Position numbers and translations under genes: made by a program
Assembly (NCBI GenBank): GCA_963665095.1
Contig: OY762069.1
Span: 6,304,001-6,368,000 of the forward strand
DNA length: 64,000 nt
Source of the DNA: an uncultured Desulfobacter sp.
Lineage (GTDB): Bacteria; Desulfobacterota; Desulfobacteria; Desulfobacterales; Desulfobacteraceae
Direction: 5' to 3'
Part shown: one piece after another, positions 17,989 to 27,123 of the stretch
How positions within the stretch are numbered: the stretch's first letter is position 1
How the letters are laid out: every line of letters begins with the position of its first letter
Notes under the pieces: model-generated
Database searches by the model: none
What the model was told of the DNA's origin: nothing
What the model saw: the letters and a program-made list of their open reading frames with translations, nothing else

Positions 17989-18341
17989 TATCTGTTGGGC
18001 CGGCCCGTGAAAGTTCCCGGGCCATCCGCCTTTTTTCGAGTTGTCACACAATCGGTTTCAGGCCATTAATCTGCTGCCAGATATAGAAATATTATTATTT
18101 AAAGTAAATATTTTTTTTGAAATGAAAAATCTCATGCTGCTGTGACGGTGAAGTTATTTGGTCCGGATTCTTTTTCCACATTGATAAGGTTAGGAAAAAT
18201 ATTTTATATCTTCCGGGGTATTTCAAAATTTGAAATATCCCGGATGGGGAGGTTCCCATGGTGGATAGATGTTATGCGGAAAAGATTCAAATTTCCTTTG
18301 AGTTATGGCAGAAAAAGAAAAGACATTTTAAGGAGAGAATT

Positions 18342-19598
18342 ATGGAAAATGATATTTTAATATATAATAGTACCCTTTTAACCATGGATGAGGGCCTGCC
18401 TGTGGTTGAAAACGGGTTTGTTCATATTTCAGACGGCAGGATTGCTGACTTTGGACCGGCAGGGCCGGACCTGGAAAAGCAAGTTTTACAGGGCAGGCGT
18501 ATAGATGCCCGGGGCGGCATTATCATGCCCGGTCTTGTGAACGGGCATACCCATGCCCCCATGTCCATGTTCCGGGGGCTGGCCGATGACCTGCCCCTGG
18601 ATGTCTGGCTCAACGAACATATTTTTCCGGCCGAGGCAACCCAGGTGACCCCGGAATCGGTGGCGGCCTGGACCGCCCACTCCTGCCGGGAGATGCTTGC
18701 CGGCGGCATCACCACCTGCTGTGACGGGTATTTTCTGGAAGCATATGCTGCGAAAGCTATGGCGGACTCCGGCATCCGGGCCGTGGCCGGTCAGGGGGTG
18801 ATTGATTTCCCTGCCCCGGGAGTCCCGGACCCGACAGGGAATATAAATCATGCAAAGGATTTTATTGAAAAAAGCGGCCGGCTCTCCTCCCGGGTAACCC
18901 CGGCTGTCTTCTGCCACTCCCCTTATACCTGTTCTAAAAAGACCCTGGTGGCAGGCAAGGCCCTGGCCCGAAACACAGGGGTGCTGTTCCAGGTCCATGT
19001 TGCGGAAACACAGGCTGAATCCGGCATGATCAAAGAAAATGACGGCCTGTCCGTGGTGGCCTATCTTGACAGTTTAGGCATCCTTGATGCAGACACGCTT
19101 CTGGTTCACAGCGTCTGGGTGGATCAATCTGATATTGAAATAATTCAGAAGCGGGGCTGTGGTGTGATTCACTGCCCGGAATCCAACATGAAGCTGGCTT
19201 CCGGCGTGGCCCCGGTACCGGACATGGTGGATGCCGGTGTGACCGTGGGGCTTGGTACGGACGGCTGCGCCTCCAACAATGACCAGGATATGTTTTCGGA
19301 GATGGGCACAGCCGCAAAACTGCATAAGGTGATCCGCATGGATCCCTGCGTCATGGATGCACGCACCTGTCTGAAAATGGCGACCATTGACGGAGCAAAG
19401 GCGCTTGGACTGGGGAAGGTGACCGGTTCCATCTGCAGAGGCAAGGCTGCGGATATCATTGTGGTGGATACGGCCGGACTTCACATGACGCCCATGCATG
19501 ATCCTTACTCCGCGCTGGTCTATGCGGCAAGGGCCTCGGATGTATCCTGGGTGCTGGTGGACGGTCAGGTGCGGGTGGAGAACAAATGCCTTGTATGA
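18342..19598 (+). CDS. mtaD: 5'-methylthioadenosine/S-adenosylhomocysteine deaminase-like amidohydrolase
   Basis: PGLVNGHTH, RGLADDLPL..WL, HSPYTC, HVAET, HCPESNMKLASG, GTDGCASNN; AGGAG RBS before 18342. Confidence 0.8.
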   Translation: MENDILIYNSTLLTMDEGLPVVENGFVHISDGRIADFGPAGPDLEKQVLQGRRIDARGGIIMPGLVNGHTHAPMSMFRGLADDLPLDVWLNEHIFPAEATQVTPESVAAWTAHSCREMLAGGITTCCDGYFLEAYAAKAMADSGIRAVAGQGVIDFPAPGVPDPTGNINHAKDFIEKSGRLSSRVTPAVFCHSPYTCSKKTLVAGKALARNTGVLFQVHVAETQAESGMIKENDGLSVVAYLDSLGILDADTLLVHSVWVDQSDIEIIQKRGCGVIHCPESNMKLASGVAPVPDMVDAGVTVGLGTDGCASNNDQDMFSEMGTAAKLHKVIRMDPCVMDARTCLKMATIDGAKALGLGKVTGSICRGKAADIIVVDTAGLHMTPMHDPYSALVYAARASDVSWVLVDGQVRVENKCLV

Positions 19599-19666
19599 TC
19601 AGCCATGCTTGTGCATGTGACGGGTCCTGGGGGAGATCTGTTTTTATAATGACCTGCCTCATAAAT

Positions 19667-19706
19667 AAAAAAGCCGACTGTCTGCCCCAGGGGCAGACAG
19701 TCGGCT
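19667..19706 (-). terminator. intrinsic terminator
   Basis: 16-bp perfect stem AGCCGACTGTCTGCCC-CTG-GGGCAGACAGTCGGCT followed by a U-run on the minus strand. Confidence 0.88.
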
Positions 19707-19812
19707 GGATAATGTCTATCAGCAAAGTTTCAGGATCAGGTGTCAGATCAGATTCAGGTTCAGTATAAGAGCATTCAGCGTCAGCATCAACATCAACCAT
19801 TATCCAAATGTT
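19667..19812 (-). ncRNA. candidate small RNA with 11 YUGA repeats
   Basis: Own promoter, 9-bp closing stem (TGGATAATG 19806-19798 / CATTATCCA 19714-19706), 9x CTGA plus 2x TTGA inside, terminator. Confidence 0.6.
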
Positions 19813-19816
19813 AGAA

Positions 19817-19847
19817 ACTATATATTATTCGGTAGAATCCAAGTCAA
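19817..19847 (-). promoter_or_regulatory. sigma70-type promoter of the candidate sRNA
   Basis: TTGACT (19847-19842), 17 bp, TATATA; alternative -10 TATAGT 2 nt further on. Confidence 0.6.
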
Positions 19848-19891: not shown

Positions 19892-20893
19892 TCATGGGAT
19901 TCCTTCTTCCTTTTTATTTGCTGTTGTATTGGTTCCTGCCACGGCAGGGATGCCAAAGGATTTAAAATAATCTGCCAGGCGCTGGGTCTCCTGATGTATG
20001 GTTTCTGCATCCGGCATGTTTTTATCTGCCATGGGGTAGGGCCGGCCCAGGGCTTTATATTTTTCAAGCCCCAGTGGGCGGTAGGGCAGCAGCTGTAGCT
20101 GGATGATGCGGTTGGCAAGTGTCTCCGTGATATACTTGGCTGTAGCGCTGACATTGGTCCTGTCATTGTTTACCCCGGGAATCACGGGGATGCGGATGAT
20201 CAGCGGTACCCGGTTCTGTGCCAGAAAAGCAATGTTGGATACAATCTGTTTGTTATCCACCCCGGTAAAGGTCCTGTGCTGCACAGGATCCATATGCTTG
20301 ATATCTGTGATGATCAGGTCTGCAGTGGGAAAGACCTTTTCAAGGATCTTCTGGGGACAGTGAAGGGCGGTTTCAAGGCAGGTGTGGATGCCTTCACCCC
20401 GACAGGCAGTGAGCAGTGCCCGGGTGAATTCCCACTGGACCAGGGCTTCGCCCCCGGACACCGTGACCCCGCCACCGGATTTTTCATAGAACTCCCGGTC
20501 TTTGACAATAACGGCCATGACCTCATCCACGGTCATTTTTTTGCCGAAAAAAGAGACCGCATTGCCCGGGCAGGCATCTGCACATTCAAAACACCCGGTG
20601 CAAAGATCCTGGTTGATGCCTGATATCTGGCCGTTGGTATGCACCAGGGCGTTAGCCGGACAGGCCGGGATGCAGAATCCGCATTTATCTGTTCCCAGAC
20701 ACCGGTCCGGGTGGATGGCGGGTTCGGGTTTCAGGGCCTGGCTTTCCGGATTGGAACACCAGAGGCAGCGCAGGGGACATCCTTTAAGGAACACCTCGGT
20801 GCGGATACCTGGGCCGTCATGGATGGTAAAGTGCTGGATGTTGAAAACAATCCCCTGCCTGGATGGGCCCGTCCGGGCCGGTGCGTCCGGCAT
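19892..20893 (-). CDS. glycyl-radical enzyme activating enzyme (radical SAM with ferredoxin insert)
   Basis: HDGPGIRT, CPLRCLWCSNPE, two extra Cys clusters, GGVTVSGGEA. Confidence 0.95.
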   Translation of the reverse strand: MPDAPARTGPSRQGIVFNIQHFTIHDGPGIRTEVFLKGCPLRCLWCSNPESQALKPEPAIHPDRCLGTDKCGFCIPACPANALVHTNGQISGINQDLCTGCFECADACPGNAVSFFGKKMTVDEVMAVIVKDREFYEKSGGGVTVSGGEALVQWEFTRALLTACRGEGIHTCLETALHCPQKILEKVFPTADLIITDIKHMDPVQHRTFTGVDNKQIVSNIAFLAQNRVPLIIRIPVIPGVNNDRTNVSATAKYITETLANRIIQLQLLPYRPLGLEKYKALGRPYPMADKNMPDAETIHQETQRLADYFKSFGIPAVAGTNTTANKKEEGIP

Positions 20894-20896
20894 GGG

Positions 20897-23425
20897 TTAG
20901 AAATCAAGCTCCGTGCGGCCGATGATGTCATACTGCAGCGGCTTGCTCAACTCCACAAAATAGGCGGAGTAGCCTGCCACCCGCACCACCAGGTGCCGGT
21001 ACTTTTCCGGGTGCTTCAGTGCCTCCAGAAGGGTCTCACGGCTCACAATATTGAACTGGGAGTGCATGCCTTTCCGGTCAAAGTACACGTCAATGAGCGA
21101 GATCAGGTTATCCCGCCCGGCGTCACCGGATACGCAGGCAGGGGTGAATTTCCAGTTAAGAAGGGTGCCGTTGCCGGCCCGGATGTGGTCCAGCTTGGTC
21201 ACGGATTTGGCAATGGCTGTGGGGCCTTTGATGTCGTGGGACCCGCCGTCGGTATGCACGGCCCCTAGACAGTCAGACACCGGTTCCAGGGCCTTTCGCC
21301 CCTCCACCGAGGCCCATTGCAGCAAACCTATGGCCACGTTGGCGGATACCGAATAAACCCCTGGCAGGTAGATGCCGCCCCGGGCGTTGCGCCGGCCTTC
21401 AATGTGCATGCAATAGGTGTCTGTGGCAAACCGGGCCAGCTCGTCTGCATAATCATCGTCATTGCCGTAATGGGGCACCTTGTCTGAGTTGACCAGGGTG
21501 TAAAGGGCTTCCGATCCCTGCCAGTTGTTCTCGCAGGCCTCCAGGAGATCCGCTCCTGTGAACCGTTTTTTGTCAAACACCAGGTGTTTGATGGTGGAAA
21601 GCCCGTCCGCCACCGTGCCCACGCCCACCGCCTGGGGACCGGTGAAGTTGTATACGGCACCGCCGGCGGTAACATCTCTTCCCCTTTCAATGCAGTCGTC
21701 CATGATGGCGGACAAAAAAGGCAGGGGTTTGAGTTCCTGGTGGACCTGGTCCATAAGTTCCGTAGCACTGACCATCTGGTCGGTCCAGTATTTCATCTGT
21801 TTGTTATAGGCGGCTTTTACCTGGTCAAAAGAGGTGAACTCCCTGAGGCTGCCTGTGGCAGGACCTAAACGAAGTCCTCTGCCCCCGCATTCATCCCAGC
21901 GTATGCAATGGGCGCCGCAGCCGATGCACCGGCCGTCATTGATGGCAAGTTCCAGTACCTTGGCAATGGAGAAATAGGCAGAGTCGTGCCAGCCGTACTC
22001 CTTGCCCCCGGCGTCAATCTCCACGCACCCCACCACATGGTAGTTACGGGCGTCTTCCAGGCTCCGGCCGGCTTTCCGGGAGGCCGGGATGGCCGCCTGG
22101 TCATTGAATAGCTTGGGCTGGCCCGTGCCGATGCGGATAACATTCACCGCCTTTACCTTGAACTGCCAGGGTGTGTTTTCATGGAACCGCACGGCCAGCC
22201 AGGGAACGCCGATGCGCAGATGGGCGTCGGCATCCAGGACCATGTAGCTTAAGTCATTGGTGGCGTCATTGCCATCCTTGTCCACACCGCCCACGGTGAG
22301 ACTGTCCCCGCCCATGCCGCGGCCGGAGTTGGCGATCACCGTGAGCCGGTCCCGGAGCTTGGTCCACCACAGGTCCTTGATAAAGGAGATTTCAATGAGC
22401 TCCTGGATCTCTTCCCTGGTTGCCCGGCCGGCGTTGATGTCGTTTTTGTAAAAGGGATACATGTACTGGTCAAAGCGGCCGAATGATACCGAGTGCCCGT
22501 TGGATTCAACCAGGATCAGGGTGGTGGCCATGTACCACAGCTGCAGGGCCTGGCGGAAGGTTTTCGGCGGCGTTTCAGCCACATGGGTGCATGTTTCGCT
22601 GATGGTGACAAGCTCTTTTTTCCAGTCCGGGTCTGATGTCTTTTCCGCCATTTCACGGGCAAGTTTGGCATACCGCAAAAGATAGTTGGTGGCCGCATCC
22701 AGCACAATCAACTCGGCCTGGTAAAAGGTCCGCTTTTTCAAGTTTTCCGGAAGCGTTACATCCAGTTCCATCATTTTTTTGCGAACTTGGGCCTTAATAC
22801 CGGAAAAGCCAAGTTCAAACAGTTTTTCATAATTGCCCTGGGTATGTCCCACCCCGCCGAAAAGGTACAAGTTGAGCAGGAACAGCCCCTTGCCCAGGTT
22901 GGAACCCTTAACCTCGTCCGGGCTCATCCTGGCCCGTACCGACTCCTCAACGGTTTTGCCCTTCCAGAAACCGGCAATGCCGGCAAGCGCTTTCTCACTT
23001 CGTTTCGAGATATAATAGTTGTCATGGAGCCGGTCCTTCCATGGATGGTTTTTCATCTCATCCATGATCCAGTCATAGGAGAACTCCGGGAAGATGGGGG
23101 CAGATTTCATAGGGGCGGCCATCTGGCCGACGATCAGTTCGTCTTTTTGGATGGAGATGGCCACGTTTTCAAGCACATGGGCAAAGGCCCGGGCACATTT
23201 GATAAGCTGGGGCTTGTCCCTGTGCATCTTATAAGCTTCAGTCACGAGGCAGGCCCGCTGGTGATCCACGGTGAATTCGGTGTCCAGCACAAATTTTCTG
23301 AACCGGTTGACCCGCTCAAAAGGAGAGGGCGCTTCATTCATCCCGGATTCCCCCACCGGCCAGACCCTGTCAAACGGTTCAATCCCGCAGGGCATCTCCT
23401 GCTTGTCTAATTCAGGTACTCCCAT
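20897..23425 (-). CDS. glycyl radical enzyme, diol-dehydratase-like eliminase of unknown substrate
   Basis: GCVE thiyl loop, RVAGYS glycyl loop, GGVGH, ESNGHS, GWHDSAYF; GGAGG RBS before ATG 23425. Confidence 0.92.
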   Translation of the reverse strand: MGVPELDKQEMPCGIEPFDRVWPVGESGMNEAPSPFERVNRFRKFVLDTEFTVDHQRACLVTEAYKMHRDKPQLIKCARAFAHVLENVAISIQKDELIVGQMAAPMKSAPIFPEFSYDWIMDEMKNHPWKDRLHDNYYISKRSEKALAGIAGFWKGKTVEESVRARMSPDEVKGSNLGKGLFLLNLYLFGGVGHTQGNYEKLFELGFSGIKAQVRKKMMELDVTLPENLKKRTFYQAELIVLDAATNYLLRYAKLAREMAEKTSDPDWKKELVTISETCTHVAETPPKTFRQALQLWYMATTLILVESNGHSVSFGRFDQYMYPFYKNDINAGRATREEIQELIEISFIKDLWWTKLRDRLTVIANSGRGMGGDSLTVGGVDKDGNDATNDLSYMVLDADAHLRIGVPWLAVRFHENTPWQFKVKAVNVIRIGTGQPKLFNDQAAIPASRKAGRSLEDARNYHVVGCVEIDAGGKEYGWHDSAYFSIAKVLELAINDGRCIGCGAHCIRWDECGGRGLRLGPATGSLREFTSFDQVKAAYNKQMKYWTDQMVSATELMDQVHQELKPLPFLSAIMDDCIERGRDVTAGGAVYNFTGPQAVGVGTVADGLSTIKHLVFDKKRFTGADLLEACENNWQGSEALYTLVNSDKVPHYGNDDDYADELARFATDTYCMHIEGRRNARGGIYLPGVYSVSANVAIGLLQWASVEGRKALEPVSDCLGAVHTDGGSHDIKGPTAIAKSVTKLDHIRAGNGTLLNWKFTPACVSGDAGRDNLISLIDVYFDRKGMHSQFNIVSRETLLEALKHPEKYRHLVVRVAGYSAYFVELSKPLQYDIIGRTELDF

Positions 23426-23472
23426 ACCCCCCTCCTTGTTTTTGTTTGTTTCTGGAACCTTATGTCCAAACA

Positions 23473-23826
23473 CTATTTCATTAATTCCAGGGCCCTTGCA
23501 AACCACATAAACTCCTTGAAACTGCCCTCAACAATGACCTTTTTTTCTGTCAGCGCCGCCACAATGGCCTCATCATTTTTACAGGTCATGGTGTTAAAGG
23601 CTGTGTCCTGGTCACACCACACCATGGCCGCATCAAAGGTGTCTATATTTCTGGATGAGCGAATCAGACCGTTGCTGAAAACATATTGTCTGCCGGTATT
23701 CTTCCGGCTGGTTGTGATGGTGACGGAAAGTTCCTTGCCCTGGATAAATTTTTTAAAGACCGGATTGTTTCGGGCTGCTTTTTTCAGTTTTTGCGCCAGA
23801 ATAAATAGAACAAGATGGAATTTCAT
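23473..23826 (-). CDS. small SCP2-like hypothetical protein
   Basis: 117 aa between tetR and the GRE; D.AMVW...AF..M....AL.E.K.IVEG pattern resembles the SCP2 fold. Confidence 0.6.
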   Translation of the reverse strand: MKFHLVLFILAQKLKKAARNNPVFKKFIQGKELSVTITTSRKNTGRQYVFSNGLIRSSRNIDTFDAAMVWCDQDTAFNTMTCKNDEAIVAALTEKKVIVEGSFKEFMWFARALELMK

Positions 23827-24786: not shown

Positions 24787-25527
24787 TTATTCAAGATGCC
24801 CGAATTTTTGCTCAAAAGCGCAGAAAACGATTTCTGCAGCCTGGGATTCGTCCTTTATATGTTTTTTGTTGATCACCAGGTCAAACTCTTCCGGGGCGGC
24901 GTTGTTTGAATTATAGATTGTTTTAAAGAAATCCGTCTGTTCTTTATCCAGTTTTTTGAGCTGATTCTCTGCCTTTTGCGCCGTTATGCCAAGCATTTTG
25001 GACAGTCGCGAAATCCTGTATTCCGTATCAGCAATTACTCTGACCGCAAGCACACTTTCCCTGGGCAGGATCAGGTGGATGCCCCTTCCCACAAAGATGG
25101 TGGGCTCCATACCGGCCAGGACAGCCGCAGTTTTCGCCAGATGTCTGGCATAATCACTTTTTAAATAGGTTTTTTCGCTGATCAGCATGGTAAACAGTTC
25201 GCTCATGATGCCGGGATATTTTTCATCAAAAAACTCCACAGCTTTTTTCGTCAGATCTTTTTCCTGGGCCATGAATTCCAGGATTTCCCGGTCAATGACT
25301 CTCATGGGCAGGCGGTCCGCTAACAGATCCGCGATTTTCAGCGCCCCGACCCCGATCTGGCGGGAAAAGCAGATGCAGGGAAAGATTGCATTGGCAGGCA
25401 GTTTTTTAGACTCTTTTTCAGGTGACTGGCCCCATTTTCTAATGTTGACTTCTGCCCAGGCAGCGGCGCTCAGTCTTTTCTTCCCGTAATCACCGGGTAT
25501 ATAGCCGGTTTTTGTGTCATCAGTCAT
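24787..25527 (-). CDS. cytidylate kinase-like family protein (paralog 1)
   Basis: ICFSRQIGVG, IDREIL, IFVGRG, FDLVIN; GGAGGAG RBS before ATG 25527. Confidence 0.85.
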   Translation of the reverse strand: MTDDTKTGYIPGDYGKKRLSAAAWAEVNIRKWGQSPEKESKKLPANAIFPCICFSRQIGVGALKIADLLADRLPMRVIDREILEFMAQEKDLTKKAVEFFDEKYPGIMSELFTMLISEKTYLKSDYARHLAKTAAVLAGMEPTIFVGRGIHLILPRESVLAVRVIADTEYRISRLSKMLGITAQKAENQLKKLDKEQTDFFKTIYNSNNAAPEEFDLVINKKHIKDESQAAEIVFCAFEQKFGHLE

Positions 25528-25662
25528 GATATCTCCTCCTCCTGTTTGTGAAAGATCCGATAAAGCGCGGACGCTTTCTAATTTCTGGTGTGGACCGAAC
25601 CAGCGATGCATAAACCGGGGACGGTCCGTGACCGTCAAAAAATCTTTATACCATCAAGAGGA

Positions 25663-25677
25663 GCAATAAAAATGCCA
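25663..25677 (-). promoter_or_regulatory. sigma54 promoter
   Basis: TGGCAT-TTTTA-TTGC. Confidence 0.75.
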
Positions 25678-25874
25678 TGGAGAAGCCAGATTTGATTTTA
25701 ATATAACTCTTTAAATTGATTGTTTATCCGCATGTTGTGAATGGCGCTTTCGCCCAGGCAGGCAGGCTGAAGTGTCGGTTTTTTTGCCGTTGTGAAAAAG
25801 CGGCTGACAGGCACAAAAGCAGACGGTTGCCGTTCTGTGACCGGTACAGCAGCGAATATTGGCTGTTGCAGGGG

Positions 25875-26615
25875 TTATGTCAGGTGTCCGAATTTATGCT
25901 CAAAGGCGCAGGAAACGATCTTCATGGCCTGGGATTCCTCCGTCAGATATTTTTTGTTAATCACCAAATCAAACTCTTCCGGGCTGGCGTCATTTTTATT
26001 GAATATTTTTTGAAAAAAGGCAGTCTGTTCCTGATCAAGCATGTTCAGCTGGTTTTCAGCCTTTTGTGCCGTGATCCCGAACATTCTGGATAGCCGTGAG
26101 ATCCGGTATGCCTTGTCTGCAATCACTCTGACCGCAAGTATGCTTTCCCGTGGCAGGATAAGGTGAATCCCTCTGCCCACAAAGATAGTGGGTTCCATGC
26201 CGGCCAGAACCGTCGCTGTTTTTGCCAGCTGCATGGCATAATCACTTTTTAAAAACGGCCTTTCTTTGATCACAGAGGAAAAGATGTTGTCAGCGACGCC
26301 GGGGTGTTCTTCCTCAAAAAATGCCTCTGCCTTTTTTGTCAGGTCTTTTTCCTGCGTCATGAATTCCAGTATTTGCCGGTCAATGACCCGCATGGGCAGA
26401 TGTCTGGCTAAAAGATCTGCAATTTTCAGGGTGCCGACTCCGATCTGCCTGGAGAAGCAGATACAGGGATAGATGGCATTGGGCGGCAGTTTTCTCGGCT
26501 TTTTATCCGGTGCCTTGTCCATGTTTTTAATATGGGTGTCTGCCCAGTCAGCGACATGCTGCCTTTTCTGGCCGTAGTCACCGGGCAAATAGGTCGTTTT
26601 TTCGTCTTTGGTCAT
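25875..26615 (-). CDS. cytidylate kinase-like family protein (paralog 2)
   Basis: Same length (246 aa) and clearly homologous to 24787-25527. Confidence 0.85.
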   Translation of the reverse strand: MTKDEKTTYLPGDYGQKRQHVADWADTHIKNMDKAPDKKPRKLPPNAIYPCICFSRQIGVGTLKIADLLARHLPMRVIDRQILEFMTQEKDLTKKAEAFFEEEHPGVADNIFSSVIKERPFLKSDYAMQLAKTATVLAGMEPTIFVGRGIHLILPRESILAVRVIADKAYRISRLSRMFGITAQKAENQLNMLDQEQTAFFQKIFNKNDASPEEFDLVINKKYLTEESQAMKIVSCAFEHKFGHLT

Positions 26616-26763: not shown

Positions 26764-26843
26764 TATCAAAAACGTCAAACCGGACAATAAAACCCGGCCT
26801 TGACGAATTATCAATTGTCAGCCATAGTAGGCTTTCGAAAATA

Positions 26844-26940
26844 ACCTTTGCTGGGGGCGCTTTAAACGGCTGAGAAGAAAACGTGCAAGTTTTCTGACCC
26901 TTGGAACCTGATGCGGATAATACCGACGCAGGGAAGCGGA
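26844..26940 (+). promoter_or_regulatory. TPP riboswitch
   Basis: GGGG..GCTGAGA..GACCCTT.GAACCTGA..CGGATAATACCG.CG.AGGGA consensus upstream of thiM. Confidence 0.93.
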
Positions 26941-27123
26941 TATAAAAACGGCTGGTCTGCCGTTTTATTCACGCCTTATTAATTCCCTGTAAAACAGCTT
27001 TTTTATTCCTGCCCGGGTTCCGTGGTGCCGCTTTTAATCCTATCCCTGACAAAATTCACGGGCTGACTTGAACGCCGGATAGAAGGACAGTTTGAGGCAG
27101 CCTGAAGGAGAGCCTGTTTATCT

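Follow-up and report, generated by a model that had tools for sequence, protein, structure and literature searches.

Hardly any RNA regulation has been described for the Desulfobacteraceae, a family of major sulfate reducers, and the locus analysed here raises the question of what an array of eleven YUGA motifs, set between a promoter and a terminator, could be doing in one of them. The first-pass annotation of the window (the whole 64-kb stretch of Desulfobacter DNA under analysis) had read the minus strand at 19667-19847 as a promoter, a closing stem, the motif array, a 16-bp hairpin and a U-run, and had interpreted the whole as an RNA sponge for a protein. All of these features are present (Table 1). 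The sequence of the element is also unchanged in contigs of three sequencing runs, from two samples that are possibly its source, and is therefore not a one-off assembly error. Very probably, the locus holds an uncatalogued small RNA gene of sulfate reducers, whose conserved frame encloses a ribosome-site-like guide in most relatives and an expandable set of four-letter repeats in one branch. In that branch, the RNA may have become a decoy for an RNA-binding protein.

Anatomy of the predicted RNA

The two promoter hexamers are 17 nt apart, and the start site probably lies near 19812. A consensus promoter scan made no call on TTGACT-N17-TATATA because the -10 hexamer lacks the final T. What supports the predicted promoter is conservation: TTGACT-N17-TATA stands 42-43 nt upstream of the closing stem in all 18 distinct YUGA-type sequences that we compared (15 genomes and 3 metagenome contigs). 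Closing stem P1 has 9 bp in the window copy. On the minus strand, the YUGA motifs start at 19796, 19790, 19784, 19778, 19763, 19757, 19751, 19746, 19739, 19733 and 19722, mostly 6 nt apart as had been claimed. The terminator hairpin (19706-19672) has 11 G-C among its 16 pairs and a 3-nt loop, and a T-run extends to 19667.

Table 1. Features of the element and its immediate neighbours, in window coordinates.
Feature	Position	Strand	Basis or remark
TRZ/ATZ-like amidohydrolase gene, convergent	18258..19598	+	Conserved neighbour marking the locus in both RNA types
Predicted sRNA, YUGA-type, about 146 nt	19667..19812	-	Profile models; transcript predicted
Intrinsic terminator, 16-pair hairpin and U-run	19667..19706	-	Terminator scan; stem sequence common to the window copy and A-type orthologs
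3' arm of closing stem P1, CATTATCCA	19706..19714	-	Sequence, fold
Weakly structured 83-nt loop, 11 YUGA motifs, mostly 6-nt period	19715..19797	-	Motif count, fold
5' arm of closing stem P1, TGGATAATG	19798..19806	-	Sequence, fold
-10 hexamer TATATA, sixth base non-consensus	19819..19824	-	Sequence and conservation
-35 hexamer TTGACT of predicted sigma70-type promoter	19842..19847	-	Sequence and conservation
Glycyl-radical enzyme and activase genes, upstream of the sRNA	19892..23506	-	Neighbour in the window's genome only; outside the element

Dinucleotide shuffles of the loop reached 11 motifs in 7 of 20,000 cases, with a mode of 6, and across the 6.9-Mb genome no other 83-nt window holds 11, the next best three holding 8. 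The fold z-score of the whole RNA (-5.46) is owed to the terminator, since stem plus loop scores -1.24 and the loop alone +0.69; relative to shuffles, the loop has no structure beyond chance.

The profile model of YUGA-type RNAs (R1) scores the window element at 80.1 bits. An Rfam scan at gathering and E-value thresholds returned only chance hairpin matches far below cut-off, in keeping with the earlier remark that no known family fits. The element matches no 6S RNA or tmRNA model, and the window's genome has two 6S RNA genes (C1:516139-516326 and 2147810-2147994) and one tmRNA gene elsewhere. We are highly confident that the element is a non-coding RNA gene uncatalogued in Rfam. Our literature search found neither a description of this RNA nor an sRNA paper on Desulfobacteraceae, although subscription papers and supplements could list it.

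Two interiors within one conserved frame

Of 25 Desulfobacter genomes, 15 contain the complete YUGA-type unit, each of them once. The unit has 4-11 motifs, a predicted RNA length of about 115-146 nt and, in most members, a loop of 47-64 nt. The 18 sequences contain 111 motifs (87 CUGA and 24 UUGA). Their spacers are 2 nt long in 63 of 93 cases, with 11 different letter pairs, and a central spacer of 10 nt is kept in 17 of the 18, the window loop having 11 nt (19774-19764). The alignment proposed in the first-pass annotation therefore gave the expected picture, YUGA conserved over variable spacers and a covarying pair in the closing stem. This is the eighth pair, which is U-A in 9 sequences, A-U in 5, G-C in 1, G-U in 1 and mismatched in 2; the first seven pairs are invariant but were required by the extraction pattern, and are uninformative on pairing. 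The largest arrays are found in different branches (11 motifs in the window's genome, 8 in G020, 10 and 8 in G021 and G024). Individual motifs are disrupted in at least 4 of the 18 sequences, and in a close strain another one is broken, at position 19763.

The unit is not retained everywhere. In G008 the terminator is kept, the interior has decayed and no promoter match is present. The element was not found in G006 (95% complete), G018 or G001, three genomes of 56, 74 and 95% completeness in which the amidohydrolase gene was likewise not found. The copy in G010 is missing the terminator's 5' arm, by deletion or assembly collapse. A metagenome pattern scan gave 119 stretches; true members were 4 of the 80 fully fetched (3 distinct), the rest of which look unrelated, and none of the 39 short stretches. 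Pattern matches outside the genus (L034-L036, L418, L420) fall within long reading frames and were rejected as members. Viral contigs gave 0 matches with both patterns, and phage records none. The YUGA form is present in records titled Desulfobacter postgatei and D. curvatus, so that cultured members exist.

Searching with the YUGA-RNA model also retrieved, in other Desulfobacter and in other genera, a second form that we call A-type. Both forms have the promoter type, closing stem and terminator stem in common. In place of a repeat array, the A-type interior has AGGA, a small hairpin and a C-rich motif that is invariant, resembles an anti-Shine-Dalgarno sequence and contains CUCCUU. The terminator loop reads GACCCU in 40 of 40 A-type and 0 of 18 YUGA-type sequences. 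The A-type pattern was found in 49 of 161 family genomes and 7 of 19 genera (e.g., L065:1504-1624), twice in G168. Of its 27 pairs, 7 show compensatory changes, and none of the loci scanned matched an Rfam family. When the window's genome was searched with a model made from A-type sequences only (R2), the window element was the sole match (59 bits, E 1.4e-10), and it retains the A-type flanks exactly. R2 found no complete member outside the family in 150 genomes of the order, and a pattern scan of 400 genomes of the phylum found none either, its 2 matches both being coding; a looser scaffold pattern was uninformative. In G307, from another family, L249:265-384 carries an A-type terminator hairpin with the GACCCU loop and neither closing stem nor seed, possibly a remnant or a third form.

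The 25 Desulfobacter genomes comprise 15 with the YUGA-type, 6 with the A-type, 1 with the decayed copy and 3 in which neither was found. No genome has both forms, and the A-type pattern is absent from all 15 YUGA-type genomes. In an RpoB tree of 23 genomes (midpoint-rooted; G014 and G017 left out for want of a full-length match), the 15 YUGA genomes form one clade with 100/100 support, in which the window's genome branches first. Together, these observations indicate a single remodelling event, in which the family-wide sRNA acquired a repeat array. The two forms are separated by one branch, and their exclusivity thus counts as one event and not as many. The A-type is likely ancestral, given its presence in six other genera, so that the change would have run from A-type to YUGA-type. 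On that branch, both C-rich elements were lost and a motif array was gained in which letters are fixed, spacers free and number variable. Going beyond the first-pass annotation, the window RNA thus appears to derive from a family-wide sRNA whose interior is different and rich in C.

The convergent amidohydrolase gene adjoins the sRNA in 8 of 15 YUGA genomes and in 11 of 21 A-type loci examined, and in 20-kb regions of four genomes it was the only gene common to both types; four YUGA loci have other neighbours. Upstream genes differ among YUGA-type genomes while the unit stays, so that it is no leader or trailer of one operon, and no conserved gene lies downstream. In the window, the glycyl-radical enzyme has (2S)-3-sulfopropanediol dehydratase as best match, over the NCBIfam cut-off. 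No terminator was called between its operon and the sRNA promoter, and the sRNA terminator may therefore also end that operon in this genome. At four loci (L005, L010, L014 and L044) the amidohydrolase reading frame continues across the sRNA terminator hairpin on the opposite strand.

Known sponge RNAs and candidate partners

CsrB, CsrC and RsmX-Y-Z are stand-alone small RNAs with their own terminator and a short reiterated motif of variable copy number, and CUGA is the box D motif of archaeal box C/D guide sRNAs. The window RNA resembles CsrB/RsmZ in being stand-alone, with a terminator and a repeated motif, and in having CsrA encoded in the same genome. In contrast, its motif is YUGA, its loop lacks GGA (the sole GGA is in the paired stem), motif-bearing hairpins are absent and no Rfam Csr/Rsm model matches it. 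With the box C/D RNAs it has CUGA in common and a loop of similar length, 47-64 nt in most members. However, the YUGA-type has no RUGAUGA box or C/D/C'/D' layout, and L7Ae was found in 0 of 5 genomes. RsmY and RsmZ are described as RsmA antagonists, and CrcZ and CrcY of Pseudomonas as titrating Hfq through six A-rich stretches (both in PMC4063720). The multi-site decoy principle would be the same, although the window RNA is one third as long as CrcZ/CrcY, is not A-rich and has a sigma70-type promoter where CrcZ has an RpoN one; Hfq was found in 0 of 5 genomes here. The YUGA-type RNA may work like CsrB/RsmZ or CrcZ, yet it fails their defining features.

For the A-type ortholog, the closest working analog in design is the RsaE/RoxS type, whose conserved C-rich motif is presented as complementary to Shine-Dalgarno regions (PMC6158497). 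The C-rich anti-Shine-Dalgarno motif and the apparent lack of Hfq are common to both, whereas the A-type has no sequence or model match to these RNAs and no conserved target was found for it. Among 30 of 51 exact 11-mer sites inspected in five A-type genomes, none was a shared start-site target, and a shorter complement of the motif is simply a generic Shine-Dalgarno sequence. The C-rich seed is present in the A-type and absent from the YUGA-type. A role for the A-type in pairing is suggested by its motif, and this sRNA family of Desulfobacteraceae deserves a description of its own.

For the YUGA-type, we propose a single-copy non-coding RNA of about 115-146 nt that would be transcribed on its own. 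The closing stem and the terminator would frame an open loop displaying 4-11 YUGA motifs, mostly every 6 nt. This loop would bind and titrate a sequence-specific, single-strand RNA-binding protein that recognises YUGA, and the motif copy number would tune decoy capacity. The form would have arisen once, in one Desulfobacter clade, by remodelling of the interior of the family-wide sRNA. We put the probability of a multi-site decoy (sponge) at roughly one half, judging from sequence comparisons. Part of what defines the class of protein sponges was found at that level, namely a stand-alone non-coding unit, a conserved reiterated motif and an open region. Fixed letters with free spacers and variable number fit repeated recognition by a protein better than base pairing. 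Several points weigh against a sponge: the 6-nt period leaves little room for one protein on each motif, a four-letter repeat could also expand by slippage, the element has decayed in one genome and was not found in three, and single motifs are broken in some sequences.

Of the sponge claimed in the first-pass annotation, the anatomy and the stand-alone, non-coding character have held up, while the search for a partner gave no identification: L7Ae and Hfq were each found in 0 of 5 genomes, and the RRM sequences of the YUGA clade display no obvious change of their own. Candidates present are cold-shock-domain proteins (4-9 matches per genome in 5 of 5 genomes) and a usually single RRM protein (23 of 25 genomes). 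CsrA is present in 5 of 5 genomes, including that of the window, and in 21 of 24 other Desulfobacter. CsrA does not fit as the partner, since the loop has no GGA and the clade's flagellin leaders keep theirs. A CsrA of switched specificity is not supported. Outside Desulfobacter, 9 of 10 genomes of genus g26 have the A-type and no CsrA match. The CsrA sequences of an A-type genome (G019) and of YUGA-clade genomes (L258-L262) differ markedly, both being encoded beside a FliW-like gene, and csrA in the YUGA clade has no clear Shine-Dalgarno sequence. CUGA-rich leaders in the window's genome do not form a coherent regulon.

Taking both forms together, we suggest only tentatively that a single sRNA gene changed its class of mechanism in situ, from an anti-Shine-Dalgarno pairing RNA to a sponge for an undescribed YUGA-binding regulator, on the same promoter-stem-terminator chassis. 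If true, the switch would have created a new post-transcriptional circuit in one clade of bacteria in which Hfq was not found, and the regulator with its sponge would join CsrA/GGA and Hfq/A-rich as a new pair. At one locus, the sRNA family offers two naturally occurring interiors that exclude each other. This exchange of interiors between orthologs makes the mechanism directly testable, including how a small RNA comes to act in a different way.

Other readings of the repeat array

An RNA that kept the presumed ancestral mode would use its YUGA stretches to pair with an mRNA, or to sponge another small RNA or a tRNA loop carrying UCAG. We consider this unlikely. The invariant motif of the A-type ortholog speaks for it, as does the C/U interchange at the first motif position, since both letters pair with G, and Hfq was not found here, as in lineages for which C-rich pairing sRNAs such as RsaE are described (PMC6158497). 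Nevertheless, the fixed core has just 4 nt and the spacer letters vary. The best duplex with leaders of the window's genome (-42.2 kcal/mol) lies within the range of six shuffled controls (-40.6 to -48.8), in a screen confined to the mRNA leaders of 2,733 predicted starts. Alternatively, the repeats could build a ladder of tandem sheared G-A pairs, with GAUG opposite CUGA as in box C/D stem II, and the loop would then be a non-canonical rod whose shape is recognised. At the central 8-nt loop, the closing pair is indeed G-C in 12, G-U in 4 and A-U in 1 of the 17 sequences with a 10-nt spacer, and by eye this central unit aligns with the inner hairpin of the A-type. Such a ladder is nonetheless improbable: only one pair covaries, a change on both of its sides is seen once, the two arms often carry different numbers of motifs (4/7 in the window copy), and both the C-stem of a K-turn and L7Ae (0 of 5 genomes) are missing.

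The repeats could also be functionless. An sRNA that had lost its ancestral target would have retained promoter and terminator, and its interior would have drifted and grown by slippage. The labile copy number, the decayed copy in G008 and the three clade members without the element would agree with this, and in some genomes the last part of the amidohydrolase frame extends into the hairpin and could preserve it. We give decay little weight because motif letters are fixed while spacer letters change, the sites are less variable than silent positions of rpoB, the unit is retained also at loci with a neighbour other than the amidohydrolase and the eighth stem pair covaries. An array of 6-bp operator sites acting in the DNA, comparable with the Fur-box hexamer motif, is highly improbable. 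The stem arms do resemble the two ends of a Fur box, the repeats read GATNCT and the promoter holds two TTGA, or one and a near copy, in 18 of 18 sequences. On the other hand, promoter and terminator bracket the unit and the gene downstream is not conserved, both stems admit G-U pairs, and the A-type ortholog covaries like an RNA (7 of 27 pairs).

A very improbable reading remains, that of a short peptide gene, with an (Asp/Glu-X)n frame running into a Leu/Ile-rich tail or with the UGA frame encoding a poly-selenocysteine peptide. That 9 of the 11 UGAs share a frame was reproduced in the window loop; SelA is encoded in 25 of 25 Desulfobacter genomes and tRNA-Sec in that of the window. In 7 of 18 sequences the peptide frame reaches a stop codon immediately ahead of the 3' stem arm (TAA, in one case TGA), and several of the changes in the central spacer are synonymous. 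However, homologs conserve neither start nor frame; a reading frame preserved in place of CUGA was what the first-pass annotation had set against its sponge. An ATG is present in only 2 of 18, one yielding six codons, the short leader has no Shine-Dalgarno sequence and frame lengths vary from 7 to 80 or more codons. In 7 equal-length genomes (21 non-independent pairs), replacement and silent differences stand at 82:40 in the element vs. 1077:6912 in rpoB, and the peptide's fourfold third-position sites differ less than those of rpoB (0.137 vs. 0.313). It is the bases and not a peptide that are constrained, as judged from this replacement excess and low third-position variation, and the dipeptide pattern is the automatic outcome of any 6-nt YUGA repeat. 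The poly-selenocysteine version fails because the 10-nt central spacer shifts the UGA frame in 17 of 18 sequences and an in-frame TAG lies just upstream in 11; neither the start codon nor the conserved in-frame UGA of a selenoprotein was found. A link to selenium was also dropped, SelA being present in all 25 genomes and hence unable to discriminate between the RNA types. A 114-codon ORF over the element (19456..19800, minus strand) was judged spurious, with no Pfam match and with unconserved start, frame and stop.

Elsewhere in the window, an ordinary TPP riboswitch (26843-26951, plus strand) lies upstream of a hydroxyethylthiazole kinase gene, and two tandem cytidylate-kinase-like (PF13189) paralogs occupy 24787-26615 on the minus strand.
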